Shown here: positions 1-31,630 of the stretch, in pieces | How positions within the stretch are numbered: the first letter of the stretch is position 1 | How the letters are laid out: every line of letters starts with the position of its first letter | Assembly (NCBI RefSeq): GCF_058153355.1 | Contig: NZ_CM177019.1 | Strand: one strand, 5' to 3' | Length of the DNA stretch: 64,000 nucleotides | Position numbers and translations under genes: made by a program | The notes under the pieces: model-generated | Told to the model about the DNA's origin: nothing | What the model saw: only the letters and a program-made list of their open reading frames with translations | Database searches by the model: none

Positions 1-172
1 GTCGAACGTTTTTCTTGGCGACTGTAAGACCGATACGGGGATGCCCCAGCGAATTCAGGCGGCCGAGAATGGTAATTTGCGGCGTGCCAGCCCGTTGTGG
101 CTGCTGGAAGACGAATGTGAATTGACTGGGAGTTAACAAGCGTAACTCCCTGGGAAATGCGAGCTTAACCAC
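1..172 (-). CDS. rnpA: RNase P protein component, N-terminal part; gene runs off the window start
   Basis: Minus-strand frame from a GTG at 170-172 translates [57 protein letters not shown]; lies directly downstream of rpmH as in the conserved rpmH-rnpA operon. Confidence 0.85.
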
Positions 173-188
173 TCAGGGGTTAGCTTTA

Positions 189-935
<747 letters not shown>

Positions 936-2339
936 GTGTCACTTTCGCTTTGGCAGCAGTGTCTTGCCCGATTGCAGGATGAGTTACCAGCCACAGAATT
1001 CAGTATGTGGATACGCCCATTGCAGGCGGAACTGAGCGATAACACGCTGGCCCTGTACGCGCCAAACCGTTTTGTCCTCGATTGGGTACGGGACAAGTAC
1101 CTTAATAATATCAATGGACTGCTAACCAGTTTCTGCGGAGCGGATGCCCCACAGCTGCGTTTTGAAGTCGGCACCAAACCGGTGACACAAACGCCACAAG
1201 CGGCAGTGACGAGCAACGTCGCGGCCCCAGCACAGGTGGCGCATGCGCAGCCGCAACGTGTTGCGCCTTCTACGCGTTCCGGTTGGGATAACGTCCCGGC
1301 TCCGGCAGAACCGACCTATCGTTCTAACGTAAACGTCAAACACACGTTTGATAACTTCGTTGAAGGTAAATCTAACCAACTGGCGCGCGCGGCGGCTCGT
1401 CAGGTGGCTGATAACCCTGGCGGTGCCTATAACCCGTTGTTCCTTTATGGCGGCACGGGTCTGGGTAAAACTCACCTGCTGCATGCGGTGGGTAACGGCA
1501 TTATGGCGCGTAAGCCGAATGCCAAAGTGGTTTATATGCACTCCGAGCGCTTTGTTCAGGACATGGTTAAAGCCCTGCAAAACAACGCGATCGAAGAGTT
1601 TAAACGCTACTACCGTTCCGTAGATGCACTGCTGATCGACGATATTCAGTTTTTTGCTAATAAAGAACGATCTCAGGAAGAGTTTTTCCACACCTTCAAC
1701 GCCCTGCTGGAAGGTAACCAGCAGATCATTCTCACCTCGGATCGCTATCCGAAAGAGATCAACGGCGTTGAGGATCGTCTGAAATCCCGCTTCGGTTGGG
1801 GACTGACTGTGGCGATCGAACCGCCAGAGTTAGAAACCCGCGTGGCGATCCTGATGAAAAAGGCCGACGAAAACGACATTCGTTTGCCGGGCGAAGTGGC
1901 GTTCTTTATCGCCAAGCGTCTACGCTCTAACGTACGTGAGCTGGAAGGGGCGTTGAACCGCGTCATTGCTAACGCTAACTTTACCGGACGGGCGATCACC
2001 ATCGACTTCGTGCGTGAGGCGCTGCGCGACTTGCTGGCATTGCAGGAAAAACTGGTCACCATCGACAATATTCAGAAGACGGTGGCAGAGTACTACAAGA
2101 TCAAAGTTGCGGATCTCCTTTCCAAGCGTCGATCCCGCTCGGTGGCGCGTCCGCGCCAGATGGCGATGGCGCTGGCGAAAGAGTTGACTAACCACAGTCT
2201 GCCGGAGATTGGCGATGCGTTTGGTGGTCGTGACCACACAACGGTGCTTCATGCTTGCCGGAAGATCGAGCAGTTGCGTGAAGAGAGCCACGATATCAAA
2301 GAAGATTTTTCAAATTTAATCAGAACATTGTCATCGTAA
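936..2339 (+). CDS. dnaA: Chromosomal replication initiator DnaA (GTG start)
   Basis: 467-aa product starting [30 protein letters not shown]; AAA+ Walker [12 protein letters not shown]; the ORF-track start at 924 is an upstream in-frame GTG. Confidence 0.97.
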
Positions 2340-2343
2340 ACCT

Positions 2344-3443
2344 ATGAAATTTACCGTAGAACGTGAGCATTTATTAAAACCGCTACAACAGGTGAGCGGT
2401 CCGTTAGGTGGTCGTCCTACGCTACCGATTCTCGGTAATCTGCTGTTACAGGTTGCTGACGGTACGTTGTCGCTGACCGGTACCGATCTCGAGATGGAAA
2501 TGGTGGCACGTGTTGCGCTGGTTCAGCCGCACGAACCAGGGGCGACGACCGTTCCGGCGCGCAAATTCTTTGATATCTGCCGTGGTCTGCCTGAAGGCGC
2601 GGAAATTGCCGTGCAACTGGAAGGTGAGCGGATGCTGGTGCGTTCCGGGCGTAGCCGTTTTTCGCTTTCCACCCTGCCAGCAGCAGATTTCCCGAACCTC
2701 GATGACTGGCAGAGCGAAGTCGAATTTACCCTGCCGCAGGCGACGATGAAGCGTCTGATTGAAGCGACTCAGTTTTCGATGGCGCATCAGGATGTTCGCT
2801 ATTACTTAAACGGTATGCTGTTCGAAACCGAAGGTGAAGAACTGCGCACCGTGGCGACCGACGGTCACCGTCTGGCGGTCTGTTCCATGCCAATTGGTCA
2901 GTCTTTGCCAAGCCATTCGGTGATCGTGCCGCGTAAAGGTGTGATTGAACTGATGCGTATGCTCGACGGCGGCGACAATCCGCTGCGCGTGCAAATTGGC
3001 AGCAACAATATACGTGCCCACGTCGGCGACTTTATCTTCACCTCCAAACTGGTGGATGGTCGCTTCCCGGATTACCGCCGTGTTCTGCCGAAGAACCCGG
3101 ACAAACATCTGGAAGCAGGCTGCGATCTGCTCAAGCAGGCGTTTGCCCGTGCGGCGATCCTCTCCAACGAGAAATTCCGCGGCGTGCGTCTGTATGTCAG
3201 CGAAAATCAGCTGAAAATCACCGCCAATAACCCGGAACAGGAAGAAGCGGAAGAGATCCTCGACGTTACCTATAGCGGTGCGGAGATGGAAATTGGCTTC
3301 AACGTCAGCTATGTGCTGGATGTTCTGAACGCGCTGAAATGCGAAAACGTGCGCATGATGCTGACCGATTCGGTTTCCAGTGTGCAGATTGAAGATGCCG
3401 CATCACAGTCGGCTGCCTATGTTGTCATGCCAATGAGACTGTA

Positions 3444-3444
<1 letters not shown>
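2344..3444 (+). CDS. dnaN: DNA polymerase III beta sliding clamp
   Basis: 366-aa [40 protein letters not shown]; conserved position after dnaA. Confidence 0.97.
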
Positions 3445-6960
<3,516 letters not shown>

Positions 6961-6985
6961 TGGCGTTAACAATGCGAGCGTGCAT

Positions 6986-7080
6986 GATGCGCTACGCTTA
7001 TCAGGCCTACGAGACTCCTGCAATATTTTGAATTTGCATGATTTTGTAGGCCGGATCAGACGTTAACGCCGCATTCGGCA
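6986..7080. repeat. Pair of REP palindromes (BIME-like) downstream of gyrB
   Basis: gatgcgctacgcttatcaggcctac (6986-7010) and inverted copy gtaggccggatcagacgttaacgccgcattcggc (7047-7080). Confidence 0.7.
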
Positions 7081-7092
7081 AGAAGCTATAAG

Positions 7093-7126
7093 AAAAGGGC
7101 GGAGATCATCTCCGCCCTTTTTATTT
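7093..7126 (+). terminator. Intrinsic terminator candidate after gyrB
   Basis: GC stem gggcggag / ctccgccc followed by a T-run (ctttttatttc). Confidence 0.65.
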
Positions 7127-7199
7127 CTGCAATCCGCGATTATCATCCCGCAGATCTATACTTTTTGAGTCAACACGTAACGCTTTACAGGTGATTATC

Positions 7200-7598
7200 A
7201 TGGGGCTTTTTGATGAAGTTGTCGGCGCCTTTCTGAAAGGCGATGCGGGGAAATATCAGGCTATTTTGAGTTGGGTTGAGGAGCAGGGTGGCATTCAGGT
7301 GCTGTTGGAAAAACTGCAAAGTGGCGGCTTAGGTGCCATTCTCTCAACCTGGTTGAGTAATCAACAGGGCAATCAGCCGGTGAGCGGCGAGCAACTGGAG
7401 TCGGCGCTCGGCACAAATGCGGTGTCCGATCTCGGGCAAAAACTGGGTGTAGATGCCAGTACGGCTTCCAGCTTGCTGGCAGAGCAACTGCCAAAGATTA
7501 TTGATGCTCTCTCACCGCAGGGTGAAGTGTCTTCGCAAACCAATAACGATCTGCTTTCCGCAGGCATGGAACTGCTGAAAGGGAAACTCTTCCGCTAA
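7200..7598 (+). CDS. yidB: DUF937 family protein YidB
   Basis: 132-aa product from ATG at 7200 (MGLFDEVVGAFLKGDAGKYQ); the ORF-track start at 7191 is an upstream GTG. Confidence 0.85.
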   Translation: MGLFDEVVGAFLKGDAGKYQAILSWVEEQGGIQVLLEKLQSGGLGAILSTWLSNQQGNQPVSGEQLESALGTNAVSDLGQKLGVDASTASSLLAEQLPKIIDALSPQGEVSSQTNNDLLSAGMELLKGKLFR

Positions 7599-7600
7599 GC

Positions 7601-7640
7601 AAAAGGGGAGCATGCAACGCGCGTTGCATCCCCCTTTTCC
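7601..7640. other. Near-perfect 40-bp palindrome / hairpin between yidB and yidA
   Basis: aaaaggggagcatgcaacgc | gcgttgcatcccccttttcc, centred at 7620/7621. Confidence 0.5.
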
Positions 7641-7712
7641 CTCGGGTGTTGTACTGATTTTTGAGCGGAATCGCGTTAGCATGGGTCAGGAACCAATCTA
7701 CCTGGGGAACTC

Positions 7713-8525
7713 ATGGCTATCAAACTCATTGCTATCGATATGGATGGCACCCTTCTGCTGCCCGATCACACCATTTCACCCGCTGTTAAAAACGCGATTG
7801 CCGCAGCTCGCGCCCGTGGCGTGAATGTCGTGCTAACGACGGGTCGCCCTTATGCAGGTGTTCACAACTACCTGAAAGAGCTGCATATGGAACAGCCGGG
7901 CGACTACTGCATTACTTATAACGGCGCGCTGGTACAGAAGGCCGCCGATGGTAGCACCGTGGCGCAAACCGCTCTCAGCTATGACGACTACCGTTTCCTG
8001 GAAAAACTCTCTCGCGAAGTCGGTTCTCATTTCCACGCCCTGGACCGCACCACGCTGTACACCGCCAACCGGGATATCAGCCCTTACACCGTGCATGAGT
8101 CGTTTGTGGCGACGATCCCGCTGGTGTTCTGCGAAGCGGAGAAAATGGACCCCAATACCCAGTTCCTGAAAGTGATGATGATTGATGAACCCGCCATCCT
8201 CGACCAGGCTATCGCGCGTATTCCGCAGGAAGTGAAAGAGAAATATACCGTGCTGAAAAGTGCGCCGTACTTCCTCGAAATCCTCGATAAACGCGTTAAC
8301 AAAGGTACAGGTGTGAAATCACTGGCCGATGTGCTGGGCATTAAGCCGGAAGAAATCATGGCGATTGGCGATCAGGAAAACGACATCGCAATGATTGAAT
8401 ATGCAGGTGTTGGTGTGGCAATGGATAACGCTATTCCTTCGGTGAAAGAAGTGGCGAACTTTGTCACCAAATCCAACCTGGAAGATGGCGTGGCGTTTGC
8501 TATTGAGAAGTATGTGCTGAATTAA
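7713..8525 (+). CDS. yidA: HAD-family (Cof-type) sugar phosphatase YidA
   Basis: 270-aa ORF; HAD motif I in IAIDMDGTLL; C-terminal GDQENDIAM motif. Confidence 0.93.
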   Translation: MAIKLIAIDMDGTLLLPDHTISPAVKNAIAAARARGVNVVLTTGRPYAGVHNYLKELHMEQPGDYCITYNGALVQKAADGSTVAQTALSYDDYRFLEKLSREVGSHFHALDRTTLYTANRDISPYTVHESFVATIPLVFCEAEKMDPNTQFLKVMMIDEPAILDQAIARIPQEVKEKYTVLKSAPYFLEILDKRVNKGTGVKSLADVLGIKPEEIMAIGDQENDIAMIEYAGVGVAMDNAIPSVKEVANFVTKSNLEDGVAFAIEKYVLN

Positions 8526-8534
8526 TCAGTGGGA

Positions 8535-8561
8535 GGGCAAACTGCATAAATGCGTTTGCCC
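8535..8561. terminator. Hairpin between the convergent genes yidA and yidX; possible bidirectional terminator
   Basis: gggcaaac ... gtttgccc stem. Confidence 0.5.
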
Positions 8562-8568
8562 GCAGCGA

Positions 8569-9225
8569 TTAACAATTTCTGGTCGTGCATAAAATCAGGA
8601 ACTGGAGTGGTGACGTTACTATATCCAGCGTAAGAGTGACTGGTAGCAGTGCATTAGCGAGGCCGCGCGGAACGCCATCAGTTGCTTTGTACTTATAAAA
8701 TCCCACCGTAAAGGGTTGATGGAAAACCATCACGTTTGAGTAATCCGCTTTTTTATTTTTCTGGTGGATAGAGCCTTTCAGGCCGTCAAGTGCCCAGGTA
8801 CAACGCTGGGTATTACAAATAAAACCATATTGTGTCGCCAGTGCTTTATCTTCCTCATTATCCCAGTCGTAATAGAGCGTTATTGAACCAGAAAAATTAG
8901 TATCACTGCTGCTTAAAATAAATTTCGCGTTATCGGAAACGGTGATTCTTTCGCCATGAATTGCCGGATCGTTCAGCATTTTAACCACCTCGCCGCCGCC
9001 CGTGGTCAACAGATAGTCCAACGATTCACCAACAAAAACATAGCCTTTCGTACCGTTACTATCCTCTGCCAGCGATAACCCCTTAATCGAGTCTGACCGC
9101 CATTGCTCGGCATGTGGAGGACTTGCGGTATTGGAAACCAACCCCCAAGTGAGACAACCGGTCAACGCAAATGCCAAAGAACACAAACCGGCAGCCTTAA
9201 AAAATCCCTTAAAATTCAACTTTAT
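8569..9225 (-). CDS. yidX: Lipoprotein YidX (218 codons if started at the ATA codon 9223-9225)
   Basis: Signal peptide plus lipobox ([23 protein letters not shown]); AAAGGA Shine-Dalgarno 5 nt upstream; the codon at the expected start is ATA, not ATG; the ORF-track frame stays open up to 9342. Confidence 0.75.
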
Positions 9226-9359
9226 GACTAATCCTTTAAACGAGTAGCTAAGCCGTTGAAAGCATACTCTTCTTTCCCTCCTGTTTAGCGCCTGATATCC
9301 CTTTTCAGATTTCTGCCCGACGCATGTCATTTTTTTATGCATTGTTCTTTTTGTGATCT

Positions 9360-9440
9360 AAATTGTAGTACAACAATATAACTTTGTACTACATTACGCA
9401 TACAGCAAACGCGAACGTCATCACGCTGGTACTACAAAAT
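9360..9440 (+). promoter_or_regulatory. dgo promoter / DgoR operator region
   Basis: Three copies of TGTA(G/C)TACA (9364-9372, 9386-9394, 9429-9437) immediately upstream of dgoR; consistent with GntR/FadR-type operators. Confidence 0.55.
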
Positions 9441-9502
9441 TGCCGCGTTATGCATCGATCGGGGTAAAGTAGAGAAGTACATACAGAGCACAAGGACTCT
9501 CC

Positions 9503-10192
9503 ATGACTCTCAATAAAACCGATCGCATCGTCATTACGCTGGGCAAACAGATCGTTCACGGCAAATACGTGCCAGGCTCGCCGCTTCCGGCCGAGGCGGA
9601 ACTTTGTGAGGAGTTTGCAACCTCGCGCAACATCATCCGTGAGGTGTTTCGTTCGCTGATGGCGAAGCGGCTGATTGAAATGAAACGTTATCGCGGGGCG
9701 TTTGTGGCACCGCGTAATCAGTGGAATTACCTCGATACTGACGTGCTGCAATGGGTGCTGGAAAACGACTACGACCCACGGCTTATCAGTGCAATGAGCG
9801 AAGTGCGAAATCTGGTGGAACCGGCGATTGCCCGTTGGGCGGCAGAGCGCGCGACTTCCAGCGATCTGGCGCAGATTGAATCAGCGCTGAACGAGATGAT
9901 CGCCAACAATCAGGACCGCGAAGCGTTTAACGAAGCGGATATTCGCTATCACGAGGCGGTACTGCAATCAGTGCATAACCCGGTGTTACAGCAACTTAGC
10001 ATTGCGATTAGTTCATTACAGCGGGCGGTTTTTGAACGAACCTGGATGGGCGATGAGGCCAACATGCCGCAAACGCTCCAGGAACATAAGGCGCTGTTTG
10101 ATGCGATACGGCATCAGGACGGCGATGCGGCAGAGCAGGCGGCGCTTACCATGATCGCCAGCTCGACACGAAGGTTAAAGGAAATCACATGA
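9503..10192 (+). CDS. dgoR: GntR/FadR-family repressor of D-galactonate catabolism
   Basis: 229-aa ORF; first gene of the dgo cluster. Confidence 0.92.
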   Translation: MTLNKTDRIVITLGKQIVHGKYVPGSPLPAEAELCEEFATSRNIIREVFRSLMAKRLIEMKRYRGAFVAPRNQWNYLDTDVLQWVLENDYDPRLISAMSEVRNLVEPAIARWAAERATSSDLAQIESALNEMIANNQDREAFNEADIRYHEAVLQSVHNPVLQQLSIAISSLQRAVFERTWMGDEANMPQTLQEHKALFDAIRHQDGDAAEQAALTMIASSTRRLKEIT

Positions 10193-11067
10193 CAGCTCGC
10201 TACATCGCAATTGACTGGGGATCGACCAATCTGCGCGCCTGGCTTTATCAGGGCGACCACTGCCTGGACAGCAGGCAATCAGAAGCAGGCGTTACGCGTC
10301 TGAACGGAAAATCTCCGGCTGCGGTGTTAGCAGAAGTGACGACCGACTGGTGTGAAGAGAATACGCCAGTGGTGATGGCAGGAATGGTTGGCAGCAATGT
10401 CGGCTGGAAAGTTGCGCCGTATTTATCTGTTCCTGCCCGTTTTTCGTCTATTGGCGAACAATTAACGTCTGTTGGCGACAATATCTGGATTATTCCCGGA
10501 TTATGCGTTTCTCATGATGATAACCACAATGTGATGCGCGGCGAAGAAACACAATTGATCGGCGCGCGTGCTTTGGCTCCTTCCTCTCTTTATGTCATGC
10601 CCGGTACGCATTGCAAATGGGTGCAGGCCGATAGCCAGCAAATCAACGATTTTCGCACCGTGATGACCGGTGAATTACATCATTTACTGTTAAATCATTC
10701 ATTGATTGGCGCAGGTTTACCACCGCAGGAAAACTCTGCCGATGCCTTCGCGGCTGGCCTTGAGCGTGGTCTCAATGCGCCCGCCATATTGCCGCAGCTT
10801 TTTGAAGTTCGTGCCTCGCATGTGCTGGGAACACTTCCCCGTGAACAGGTCAGCGAATTTCTCTCTGGTTTGTTGATTGGCGCAGAGGTCGCCAGTATGC
10901 GCGACTACGTGGTCCATCAACACGCCATCACCCTTGTCGCCGGAACATCGCTGACTGCACGCTACCAGCAAGCCTTTCAGGCGATGGGTTGCGACGTGAC
11001 GGCGGTGGCGGGCGACACGGCATTTCAGGCTGGTATAAGGAGCATCGCTCATGCAGTGGCAAACTAA
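10189..11067 (+). CDS. dgoK: 2-dehydro-3-deoxygalactonokinase
   Basis: 292-aa ORF; start overlaps the dgoR stop. Confidence 0.92.
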   Translation: MTARYIAIDWGSTNLRAWLYQGDHCLDSRQSEAGVTRLNGKSPAAVLAEVTTDWCEENTPVVMAGMVGSNVGWKVAPYLSVPARFSSIGEQLTSVGDNIWIIPGLCVSHDDNHNVMRGEETQLIGARALAPSSLYVMPGTHCKWVQADSQQINDFRTVMTGELHHLLLNHSLIGAGLPPQENSADAFAAGLERGLNAPAILPQLFEVRASHVLGTLPREQVSEFLSGLLIGAEVASMRDYVVHQHAITLVAGTSLTARYQQAFQAMGCDVTAVAGDTAFQAGIRSIAHAVAN

Positions 11068-11668
11068 ACTCCCGCTGATCGCCATTTTGCGCGGTATTAC
11101 GCCCGACGAGGCGCTGGCGCATGTTGGCGCGGTGATTGACGCTGGGTTCGACGCGGTTGAAATCCCTCTGAATTCCCCACAATGGGAACAAAGCATTCCC
11201 GCCATCGTTGATGCGTATGGCGACAAGGCGTTGATTGGCGCAGGTACGGTACTGAAACCTGAACAGGTCGATGCGCTCGCCAGGATGGGCTGTCAGCTCA
11301 TCGTTACGCCCAATATCCATAGTGAAGTGATCCGCCGCGCGGTGGGCTATGGCATGACCGTTTGCCCCGGCTGCGCGACGGCGACAGAAGCCTTTACCGC
11401 GATCGACGCGGGCGCTCAGGCGCTGAAAATATTCCCGTCATCGGCTTTTGGGCCGCAATACATCAAAGCGTTAAAAGCGGTATTACCGCAGGACATCCCG
11501 GTCTTTGCCGTAGGCGGTGTGACGCCAGAAAACCTGGCGCAGTGGATAGACGCAGGTTGTGCAGGGGCGGGCTTAGGCAGCGATCTCTATCGCGCCGGGC
11601 AGTCCGTAGAACGCACCGCGCAGCAGGCAGCAGCATTTGTTAAGGCGTATCGAGAGGCAGTGCAATGA
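11051..11668 (+). CDS. dgoA: 2-dehydro-3-deoxy-6-phosphogalactonate aldolase
   Basis: 205-aa ORF in conserved dgo gene order. Confidence 0.92.
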
Positions 11669-12702
11669 AAATCACCAACATTACTACGTATCGTTTACCT
11701 CCCCGCTGGATGTTCCTGAAAATTGAAACTGATGAAGGCGTGGTCGGTTGGGGCGAGCCCGTGATCGAAGGCCGCGCTCGTACGGTGGAAGCGGCAGTTC
11801 ACGAGCTGAGTGACTATTTGATTGGTCAGGATCCATCGCGCATCAATGACTTATGGCAAGTGATGTATCGCGCCGGATTTTATCGTGGCGGTCCGATTCT
11901 GATGAGCGCCATCGCCGGGATCGACCAGGCGTTATGGGATATCAAAGGTAAAGTGCTGAATGCGCCGGTCTGGCAACTGATGGGCGGCCTGGTTCGCGAC
12001 AAAATTAAAGCCTACAGTTGGGTCGGCGGCGATCGTCCGGCGGATGTTATCGACGGCATTAAAACGCTACGCGAAATCGGCTTCGATACCTTCAAACTGA
12101 ACGGTTGTGAAGAACTGGGATTGATTGATAACTCCCGCGCGGTAGATGCGGCGGTCAACACCGTGGCACAAATTCGTGAAGCTTTTGGCAATCAGATTGA
12201 GTTTGGTCTTGATTTCCACGGTCGCGTCAGCGCGCCGATGGCGAAAGTGCTGATTAAAGAACTGGAACCGTATCGCCCTCTGTTTATTGAAGAGCCGGTG
12301 CTGGCGGAACAAGCCGAATACTACCCGAAACTGGCAGCACAAACTCACATCCCACTGGCGGCGGGTGAGCGCATGTTCTCACGTTTCGATTTTAAACGTG
12401 TGCTGGAAGCTGGCGGTATTTCGATTCTGCAACCCGATCTTTCTCACGCAGGTGGTATTACCGAATGCTACAAAATTGCCGGAATGGCGGAAGCCTATGA
12501 CGTGACCCTTGCGCCGCACTGTCCGCTCGGCCCGATTGCACTGGCGGCTTGCCTGCATATCGACTTTGTTTCCTATAACGCGGTACTTCAGGAACAAAGT
12601 ATGGGCATTCATTACAACAAAGGCGCGGAGTTACTCGACTTTGTGAAAAATAAAGAAGACTTCAGCATGGTCGGTAATGCCGATCAGTTAAGGATCAGTT
12701 GA
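11665..12702 (+). pseudogene. dgoD: D-galactonate dehydratase, truncated by IS4 after about codon 336; the last 8 codons and the stop are read from IS4 sequence
   Basis: Enolase-superfamily N-terminus ([32 protein letters not shown]); reading frame runs into the IS4 left inverted repeat at 12675 and ends NADQLRIS*; full-length DgoD is about 382 aa as I recall. Confidence 0.88.
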
Positions 12703-14100
12703 CCGATCCAGTGGCTGTGTAAGAATCCGGAAACGCTCACTTGTTTCCGGATTTTTTTATGCACATTGGACAGGCTCTTGATCTGGTATCCCGTTACGAT
12801 TCTCTGCGTAACCCACTGACTTCTCTGGGGGATTACCTCGACCCCGAACTCATCTCTCGTTGCCTTGCCGAATCAGGTACTGTAACGCTACGCAAGCGCC
12901 GTCTTCCCCTCGAAATGATGGTCTGGTGTATTGTTGGCATGGCGCTTGAGCGTAAAGAACCTCTTCACCAGATTGTGAATCGCCTGGACATCATGCTGCC
13001 GGGCAATCGCCCCTTCGTTGCCCCCAGTGCCGTTATTCAGGCCCGCCAGCGCCTGGGAAGTGAGGCTGTCCGCCGCGTGTTCACGAAAACAGCGCAGCTC
13101 TGGCATAACGCCACGCCGCATCCGCACTGGTGCGGCCTGACCCTGCTGGCCATCGATGGTGTGTTCTGGCGCACACCGGATACACCAGAGAACGATGCAG
13201 CCTTCCCCCGCCAGACACATGCCGGGAACCCGGCGCTCTACCCGCAGGTCAAAATGGTCTGCCAGATGGAACTGACCAGCCATCTGCTGACGGCTGCAGC
13301 CTTCGGCACGATGAAGAACAGCGAAAATGAGCTTGCTGAGCAACTTATAGAACAAACCGGCGATAACACTCTGACGTTAATGGATAAAGGTTATTACTCA
13401 CTGGGACTGTTAAATGCCTGGAGCCTGGCGGGAGAACACCGCCACTGGATGATACCTCTCAGAAAGGGAGCGCAATATGAAGAGATCAGAAAACTGGGTA
13501 AAGGCGATCATCTGGTGAAGCTGAAAACCAGCCCGCAGGCACGAAAAAAGTGGCCGGGACTGGGAAATGAAGTGACAGCCCGCCTGCTGACCGTGACGCG
13601 CAAAGGAAAAGTCTGCCATCTGCTGACGTCGATGACGGACGCCATGCGCTTCCCCGGAGGAGAAATGGCGGATCTGTACAGTCATCGCTGGGAAATCGAA
13701 CTGGGATACAGGGAGATAAAACAGACGATGCAACTGAGCAGGCTGACGCTGAGAAGTAAAAAGCCGGAGCTTGTGGAGCAAGAGCTGTGGGGTGTCTTAC
13801 TGGCTTATAATCTGGTGAGATATCAGATGATTAAAATGGCGGAACATCTGAAAGGTTACTGGCCGAATCAACTGAGTTTCTCAGAATCATGCGGAATGGT
13901 GATGAGAATGCTGATGACATTGCAGGGCGCTTCACCGGGACGTATACCGGAGCTGATGCGCGATCTTGCAAGTATGGGACAACTTGTGAAATTACCGACA
14001 AGAAGGGAAAGGGCCTTCCCGAGAGTGGTAAAGGAGAGGCCCTGGAAATACCCCACAGCCCCGAAAAAGAGCCAGTCAGTTGCTTAACTGACTGGCATTA
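12675..14100 (+). mobile_element. IS4, complete (1426 bp) with imperfect 18-bp terminal inverted repeats
   Basis: Left IR taatgccgatcagttaag (12675-12692); right IR cttaactgactggcatta (14083-14100); flanks tcagcatggtcgg and gaccgatttggcc do not form a direct repeat. Confidence 0.93.
12759..14087 (+). CDS. insG: IS4 transposase (DDE)
   Basis: 442-aa product from ATG at 12759 ([31 protein letters not shown]...); the ORF-track start at 12741 is an upstream TTG. Confidence 0.93.
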
Positions 14101-14134: not shown

Positions 14135-16600
<2,466 letters not shown>

Positions 16601-29770: not shown

Positions 29771-30808
29771 TTACTTCGCAAGAGTCACTGTGGAGGGAGA
29801 GGCTTGCTCAAAACCGCGTTCAAGGATTTCCAGATTGGTAAGAACTTCAGATTCCTTGACGTAATTTGGTGCACCGTTGGTGATGGTTTGATACAACGCA
29901 TCATAAACGCGCCCATAATCGCCCATCTCTGGCTTCATCTCTTCTCTGACCGTAACGCCCTCGTCATTGACATACTCCAGCACACCGACCGAATCATCCG
30001 CTGCGAATCCCGGCTCGCCCGGCATAATATTAGCCTTCAGGCTGGTTTCCTGCTGGTCGATACCGTATTTAATAAACGAACCTTTCTTACCGTGAACGAT
30101 AAATTTCGGATAATCGATTTTCACCAGATGGCTGGTTTTGACGATGGCTTTTAGATCGCCATAAAACAGCTGCGCTTCGAAGGTGTCGTCAGGATTGGCT
30201 TTATTACGCAGGCTGCGGATGTCATAAGCGACGTGATCCGGGCGACCGAACAGCGAGATAATCTGGTCCATCGTATGCACACCAAGGCCATAGAACGCGC
30301 CATCCTGCGGCAGCCCGGGTTTGGTTTCTGCCACCGGGCGGTAATAGTCAAAATGGCTTTCCATTTCAACAATCTCTCCCAGCTTGCCGCTTTCAATCGC
30401 TTTTTTCGCCGTCAGAAAACAGGAATCAAAGCGACGATTCTGATACGGCGTGACGGTCAGCCCTTTACTTTTCGCCAGCGCAAAAAGTTCTTTCGCCTGC
30501 GCAAGCGTCGGAGTGAATGGTTTTTCGACCAGCACATTTTTCCCGGCTTCCAGCGCGCGTTTCGCGTACTCGAAGTGGCTGTCCGCATGAGTGCAGACGA
30601 CAATCAACTTAACGTCGGGATCGTTTAGCACTTCGTCGAGATCGCTGGTGAAATGAATATGGGAATAAATGGGAGCCTGTTCTTCCGGCTTCGCATGGCG
30701 GCGAAAAATATGCGCGACATGCCAGCTATCCTTGCGGTTAAGTACATACGGCAGATGGTAACGGGTGGTGCTTTTGCCGAAGCCAATAAAGGCGCAGTTG
30801 ATGACCAT
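29771..30808 (-). CDS. yhhX: Gfo/Idh/MocA-family oxidoreductase
   Basis: 345-aa ORF with N-terminal Rossmann fold. Confidence 0.9.
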   Translation of the reverse strand: MVINCAFIGFGKSTTRYHLPYVLNRKDSWHVAHIFRRHAKPEEQAPIYSHIHFTSDLDEVLNDPDVKLIVVCTHADSHFEYAKRALEAGKNVLVEKPFTPTLAQAKELFALAKSKGLTVTPYQNRRFDSCFLTAKKAIESGKLGEIVEMESHFDYYRPVAETKPGLPQDGAFYGLGVHTMDQIISLFGRPDHVAYDIRSLRNKANPDDTFEAQLFYGDLKAIVKTSHLVKIDYPKFIVHGKKGSFIKYGIDQQETSLKANIMPGEPGFAADDSVGVLEYVNDEGVTVREEMKPEMGDYGRVYDALYQTITNGAPNYVKESEVLTNLEILERGFEQASPSTVTLAK

Positions 30809-30930
30809 GATTTCGTCCTTTTTAAGGGGGTTATTTACACCTTAGCGCAAAGCGGACGCGGTTCCTACAGGAGTGCGCATAACAAACACAAGCACTTCCC
30901 GTGGATAAATTGAGAACGAAAGGTCAAAAA

Positions 30931-31020
30931 AAAAGCCAGCACCCGGCTGGCTAAGTAATACTGGAAGCAATGTGAGCAATGTCGTGCTTTCAGGTTCTCC
31001 GCGAGGGTCTTCCTGATCGC
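30931..31020 (-). ncRNA. ryhB: Small RNA RyhB (Fur-repressed; iron-sparing response)
   Basis: Minus-strand 90 nt GCGATCAGGAAGACCCTCGCGGAGAACCTGAAAGCACGACATTGCTCACATTGCTTCCAGTATTACTTAGCCAGCCGGGTGCTGGCTTTT with terminal hairpin and U-tail. Confidence 0.93.
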
Positions 31021-31047
31021 GAGACAATAATAATCATTCTCATTCGC
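31021..31047 (-). promoter_or_regulatory. Fur box overlapping the ryhB promoter
   Basis: Minus-strand read gaatgagaatgattattattgtc resembles the GATAATGATAATCATTATC consensus. Confidence 0.7.
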
Positions 31048-31141
31048 ACTTGTCCAACACTTTTTGCAAAAAAATGCATTTGACTCGCATTTGAAAGTCA
31101 ATGATGTTGAAAGGGACATTTACCCCAAAGAGGACAAAGGA

Positions 31142-31630
31142 ATGAGTGAGATAGTAATACGCCACGCAGAAACACGGGATTACGAGGCCATCAGGCAAAT
31201 TCACGCCCAACCGGAGGTGTATTACAACACGCTACAACTACCTCATCCTTCGGAAGGCTGGTGGCCAGAAAGATTGAAAGATCGCCAGGGATTTAAACAA
31301 CTGGTTGCCTGCATTGATAGTATCGTGGTGGGTCATCTTTTCGTGGAAGCTTATCAAGGCCCACGTCGCAGTCATGTTGCAACTTTTGGTATCTGTGTTG
31401 ACTCCCGCTGGCACAACCGTGGCATCGCCAGCGCCCTGATCCGCGAATTGATTGAAATGTGCGACAACTGGTTACGGATAGATCGTATTGAGTTGACGGT
31501 GTTTGCGGATAACGCCCCAGCAATCGCAGTCTATAAAAAATTCGGATTTCTCATAGAAGGTACCGGCAAAAATTACGCTTTTCGTAATGGCGAATATGTC
31601 GATGCGTATTATATGGCGCGGGTGAAATAG
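31142..31630 (+). CDS. yhhY: GNAT-family N-acetyltransferase
   Basis: 162-aa product from MSEIVIRHAETRDYEAIRQIH; the ORF-track frame starts 26 codons upstream. Confidence 0.88.
   Translation: MSEIVIRHAETRDYEAIRQIHAQPEVYYNTLQLPHPSEGWWPERLKDRQGFKQLVACIDSIVVGHLFVEAYQGPRRSHVATFGICVDSRWHNRGIASALIRELIEMCDNWLRIDRIELTVFADNAPAIAVYKKFGFLIEGTGKNYAFRNGEYVDAYYMARVK

Follow-up and report, generated by a model that had tools for sequence, protein, structure and literature searches.

A gene-free gap of 333 bp (30809..31141) lies between yhhX and yhhY in the 64-kb stretch of DNA analysed here (hereafter the window), and the minus strand of this gap carries the gene of the small regulatory RNA RyhB together with its promoter, an overlapping cluster of Fur boxes and a terminator (Table 1). 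Reading the minus strand from 31020 to 30931 gives GCGATCAGGAAGACCCTCGCGGAGAACCTGAAAGCACGACATTGCTCACATTGCTTCCAGTATTACTTAGCCAGCCGGGTGCTGGCTTTT, the 90-nt RyhB, and the same strand can be followed from 31020 as GCGATCAGGAAGACCCTCGCGGAGAACCTGAAAGCACGACATTGCTCACATTGCTTCCAGTATTACTTAGCCAGCCGGGTGCTGGC and then nine T. The initial annotation of this DNA had described a 90-nt RyhB with its terminator hairpin on the minus strand of the yhhX-yhhY region, preceded by a Fur-box-like AT-rich sequence. Both descriptions were borne out, the former by the sequence itself, the RF00057 match, the identity with K-12 and the terminator scan, and the latter by the best Fur-consensus match of the window. The interval then assigned to the element, 30931..31047, had the place and the strand right but left out the -35 hexamer at one end and, at the other, the five final U residues (30930..30926). 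The gap, which had been called an empty one of 330 bp, is indeed free of genes, but it is three base pairs longer and is overlapped by two minus-strand frames of 61 and 84 codons, which are not conserved.

Table 1. Features of the ryhB locus, its flanking genes and the IS4 element in the window.
Feature	Position	Strand	Evidence or detail
ryhB, RyhB small regulatory RNA	30926..31020	-	K-12 b4451 annotation via alignment; RF00057 match
Conserved single-stranded core GCACGACATTGCTCACATTGCTTCCAG	30961..30987	-	exact 27-nt match in other genomes
Rho-independent terminator and Hfq-binding 3' module	30926..30952	-	terminator scan; covariation
Predicted 5' stem-loop, nt 5-9 UCAGG with nt 27-31 CCUGA	30990..31016	-	RNAalifold consensus, 21 enteric sequences
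Sigma-70 promoter of ryhB	31027..31056	-	consensus promoter scan
Fur-box cluster	31023..31047	both strands scored	Fur-consensus scan; overlaps -10
yhhX, oxidoreductase, downstream neighbour on the strand of ryhB	29771..30808	-	NCBIfam PRK10206, 777 bits, full length
yhhY, GNAT N-acetyltransferase, divergent upstream neighbour	31142..31630	+	NCBIfam PRK10140, 320 bits, full length
IS4 element, complete, 1426 bp, 18-nt terminal inverted repeats	12675..14100		flanks 11665..12702 and 14135..16582
IS4-family transposase ORF	12741..14087		

The order yhhX/ryhB/yhhY is common to the window, K-12 and strain 2020CK-00188, and the full-length NCBIfam equivalog matches of both flanking genes confirm that ryhB stands at its canonical enterobacterial position. 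An identification of YhhY with HqbA, an Hfq-regulating acetyltransferase, was considered and rejected, as the published HqbA is YhbS and yhhY is absent from that paper; had it held, ryhB would have had a functional tie to the adjacent gene.

The identity of the RNA was established by covariance-model search, the check proposed at the outset. When all 64 kb were scanned against Rfam, the RyhB family (RF00057) matched at 30991..30927 of the minus strand with 83.1 bits against a gathering score of 55, over the full length of the model (positions 1-67 of 67) and with E = 3.6e-14 for the whole window. This was the one RyhB copy in the 64 kb, and a permissive scan of the intergenic region returned RyhB as the sole family above threshold. 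By all features examined, the ryhB found here is a member of RF00057.

In a three-way alignment, the window and E. coli K-12 MG1655 are identical at 218/218 bases from the start codon of yhhY to the end of the RyhB U-tail, so that no difference was found in the stretch holding ryhB, its promoter and the upstream region of yhhY. The differences in the intergenic region, amounting to 5 substitutions, of which one is private to the window, and a 1-base indel, all fall within the 117-bp spacer 30809..30925 that runs from the RyhB terminator to the start of yhhX. In MG1655 an ncRNA, ryhB (b4451), is annotated between yhhX and yhhY as in the window; that record is 95 nt long and corresponds to 31020..30926 with the whole 9-U tail included, while the classical 90-nt form ends at 30931. 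Judged by its sequence, the ryhB of the window is the same allele as that of K-12, and the earlier remark that the gene is well described holds for an RNA identical to b4451. The locus is indeed already known, and RyhB is among the best-characterised bacterial small RNAs.

Within the species, the yhhX-ryhB-yhhY intergenic region was matched in 5424/5426 complete E. coli genomes. Of the 5424 genomes that have the 131-base segment of promoter plus gene, 5413 carry it at an identity of 99% or more. The segment was chromosomal in every complete E. coli genome holding it. Matches in PLSDB were considered as candidates for a mobile ryhB and rejected, the hits being multi-megabase records, several of them of 4.8-5.4 Mb, and thus chromosomes filed as plasmids. 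Among the matches listed for RefSeq E. coli other than K-12 in the complete-genome search, no annotated feature lay under the segment; standard RefSeq annotation thus leaves ryhB unmarked, in agreement with the earlier description of the gene as invisible to ORF calling. Taken together, the element is almost certainly the chromosomal ryhB of Escherichia coli with its Fur-controlled promoter.

The consensus scan of 30700..31250 found a single promoter, in which the -35 hexamer TGGACA (31056..31051) and the -10 hexamer TATTAT (31032..31027) are separated by an 18-nt spacer and match the consensus at 10 of 12 positions. The -10 hexamer ends 7 bases before the annotated start of ryhB, and the +1 of RyhB, transferred from the K-12 annotation through the alignment, is the G at 31020. 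For the Fur sites, all positions of the window were scored on both strands against the 19-bp Fur consensus GATAATGATAATCATTATC. The main box, which reads GAGAATGATTATTATTGTC on the minus strand (31041..31023), is AT-rich, lies directly upstream of +1 and overlaps the -10 hexamer; its scores are 16/19 (plus strand) and 15/19 (minus strand). A second site (31029..31047; 14/19) overlaps it at an offset of 6 bp. The Fur-box scan suggested beforehand as a check thus placed the top match of all 64 kb exactly in front of ryhB. In 40 first-order Markov simulations of the window, sites of at least 15/19 were expected at a mean of 0.15 per 64 kb, and one simulated window in the 40 reached a score of at least 16. 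Chen et al. 2007 described a 25.2-bit Fur site overlapping two weaker ones directly before ryhB and centred at about -15, with binding of Fur to the site cluster in front of K-12 ryhB demonstrated by gel shift (PMC2189734), and the layout of the Fur sites in the window agrees with that arrangement.

Comparative analysis was built on exact matches to the 27-nt core, with one genome taken per species. The core was found in at least 120 stretches of Enterobacterales, Vibrionaceae and Aeromonadaceae, often twice per genome, and 116 RyhB copies were analysed (115 from other genomes and the window's own). As the loci were picked by the core, its conservation in this set is given by construction; the Fur box and the terminator, which flank it, count as independent observations. 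In 85% of the 116 copies the 130 nt upstream contain a Fur match of 15/19 or better, as compared with 0.2% of random 130-nt segments from the same loci and 0.1% of shuffled upstream segments, and the Fur box accompanies the RyhB copies in three bacterial orders.

Several side observations were made on copies in pairs. Two exact 27-nt cores are present in many genomes, among them those of Yersinia, Photorhabdus, Serratia, Pantoea, Pectobacterium, Hafnia and Salinivibrio; the two copies of Salinivibrio form a tandem with a distance of about 300 bp. One set of paralogues has a U-run directly after the core (TGTTTTTT), in place of the usual spacer and hairpin.

The core of the window's RNA is the region that would pair with target mRNAs. 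Downstream of it, the terminator scan found a 7-bp stem AGCCAGC/GCUGGCU at 30952..30934 with a 5-nt loop and a 9-U tail, the run 30934..30926 being nine T with the stem-closing T counted. A 9-U tail, a hairpin of -10.7 kcal/mol and dependence on Hfq have been described for RyhB (PMC4509938). When 56 distinct 3' modules were aligned, the terminator stem was paired in 97.7% of cells, and the compensatory changes ran from A-U to G-C or C-G and from C-G to U-A. Cells changed on both sides numbered 21 against 2.8 in shuffles, a count that is not to be read as a probability because the sequences are related by descent; the slide control is more telling, in that shifting the 3' partners by 1-3 columns abolishes the signal of covariation.

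The 5' part of the RNA is predicted to form a stem-loop whose pairs are invariant across the 21 enteric sequences. None of the 19 predicted pairs showed compensatory changes among these 21 full-length sequences of close enterics, which are too conserved for covariation to show; it was the broader alignment of 3' modules that proved informative. The folding energy of the 90-nt RNA, computed from the single sequence, was not distinguishable from that of shuffles (z = -0.67). Small RNAs whose seed is long and unstructured commonly give such a result.

The mechanism of RyhB is reportedly established by Masse and Gottesman 2002 and later work. For the window's gene, Fur binding, regulation by iron, Hfq binding and pairing with targets are transferred from experiments done with K-12, and they can be strongly presumed because the sequence is identical to that of the gene studied there. 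With ample iron, dimers of Fe2+-Fur on the overlapping Fur boxes would mask the -10 hexamer and thereby block RNA polymerase; under iron shortage, Fur would be released and the RNA of 90-95 nt would be made. Its terminator hairpin and long 3' U-tail would bind Hfq, and its single-stranded core would pair with mRNAs encoding non-essential proteins that use iron (sodB, sdhCDAB, acnB, ftnA, bfr and others). Such pairing would lead to a block of translation and decay by RNase E, by which iron would be spared. RyhB also activates shiA.

Other readings of the region were weighed against this assignment. The overlapping minus-strand frames could be taken to mean that the region codes for a small protein: the mechanical list of ORFs holds one of 84 codons beginning with ATG (30865..31119) and one of 61 codons beginning with TTG (30842..31027), and in the window no stop codon interrupts sense frame 0 through the core for 84 codons. 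The 84-codon frame, however, starts upstream of the -35 hexamer and ends beyond the terminator and so does not fit the transcript, and the RyhB RNA has no AUG. Across the 116 RyhB copies all six frames through the core shrink to a minimum of 4-14 codons, and one-base differences in length between core and terminator (TATTACTTAGCC versus TATTACTTTAGCC) shift the frame. A coding function is on these grounds extremely improbable, and both ORFs were rejected as protein-coding, their frames not being conserved. The gene-free gap is explained by ryhB, which also warns against calling the 61- and 84-codon frames as genes. The probability is likewise negligible that the copy is decayed or silent, or a second paralogue of the kind of Salmonella RyhB-2/IsrE, in place of a functional ryhB. 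Many species (Yersinia, Photorhabdus, Serratia, Pantoea and Pectobacterium) do carry two core copies in different places, yet the window has a single copy, which occupies the canonical yhhX-yhhY position and matches the K-12 gene used in the experiments base for base, promoter, Fur boxes and terminator included.

A reading that deserves more weight, though it is itself rather doubtful, is that the Fur box serves the neighbouring genes instead of or besides ryhB, either yhhX through readthrough of the terminator or yhhY through a divergent promoter. Vassinova and Kozyrev are said to have first assigned the Fur site to yhhX, which lies on the strand of ryhB, 117 bp downstream of the RyhB U-tail, and the only other terminator-like hairpin between the two genes (30903..30887) is weak. 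The Fur cluster, on the other hand, overlaps the -10 hexamer of ryhB, with its centre at about -15 relative to the start of that gene, and ryhB is therefore its primary target. In plasmid constructs about 20% of polymerases pass the ryhB terminator (PMC4509938), but termination at ryhB is enhanced under iron depletion (PMC4509938), which would limit readthrough at the very time when the promoter is on. The source of these findings, Morita et al. 2015, reports better termination at ryhB under stress, and that readthrough-extended RyhB products lose Hfq binding (PMC4509938); co-transcription of ryhB and yhhX is regarded in the literature as suspected or likely, and as unproven (PMC4509938). That the ryhB promoter may also drive yhhX by partial readthrough of the RyhB terminator is put forward as a tentative and somewhat unlikely possibility. 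If true, yhhX would be controlled by Fur and iron, and ryhB-yhhX would form a conditional operon like sgrS-setA. Regulation of the neighbours by the Fur box would add to the explanation of the locus as a Fur-controlled ryhB and would not replace it.

Two further Rfam matches were observed elsewhere in the window. AsdA (RF02674), the Salmonella antisense RNA of dnaA, matched over its full length with 100.9 bits at 1446..1526 of the minus strand, antisense within the dnaA ORF (924..2339). The match covers the Walker-A region of dnaA, as read from the sequence by eye, and may reflect conservation of the protein-coding sequence rather than an antisense RNA expressed in this strain. A match to ES036/CssrF (RF02751; 52.5 bits against a gathering score of 37.6) lies at 7003..7045 of the minus strand, just downstream of the gyrB ORF (4543..6960) and on the opposite strand.

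The window and K-12 are not collinear. In the window, dnaA, dnaN, recF, gyrB and the dgo genes occupy positions 1..12674, and dnaA stands 29 kb from ryhB, a distance that is 300-340 kb in K-12 and in the closest complete genome. On the left side of the complete IS4 element dgoD is truncated, with its 3' end cut off (profile positions 1-336 of 382), and on the right side the 3' end of glgP is followed by glg, asd and gnt genes, yhhW, yhhX and ryhB. The ORF within the element was considered as dgoT and rejected, being the IS4 transposase. Of the 5426 complete E. coli genomes, none contained the dgoD-IS4 junction and 18 contained the IS4-glgP junction; no target-site duplication was seen flanking IS4 at 12675..14100. 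The simplest and likely readings of this arrangement are that two IS4 copies in inverted orientation recombined, inverting about 300 kb, or that the assembly is chimeric across the repeat.

Among known systems, K-12 ryhB differs from that of the window in nothing within the gene itself, and the promoter, the cluster of Fur boxes, the RNA, the terminator and the orientation of the neighbours are alike; the chromosomal setting differs owing to the IS4 junction 17 kb away. The RyhB relatives, namely RyhB-1/RfrA and RyhB-2/IsrE/RfrB of Salmonella, RyhB1/2 of Yersinia and the RyhB of Klebsiella, Vibrio and Aeromonas, have the 27-nt core and an upstream Fur box in common with the window, and most gammaproteobacterial RyhB copies end, as here, in a GC-rich terminator with a long U-tail. 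They differ in their 5' parts, which outside close enterics are unrelated in sequence to that of the window, in their terminator stems, which depart from the window's by compensatory changes, and, in some genomes, in the presence of two copies at other locations. Pseudomonas PrrF1/PrrF2 (RF00444) have no detectable homology with the RyhB of the window, the PrrF model reaching 21.3 bits in the intergenic region in the permissive Rfam scan against a gathering score of 90, with E = 0.29, which is at the level of chance. They are nonetheless functional analogues of RyhB, that is, Fur-repressed small RNAs that repress the mRNAs of iron-containing proteins.
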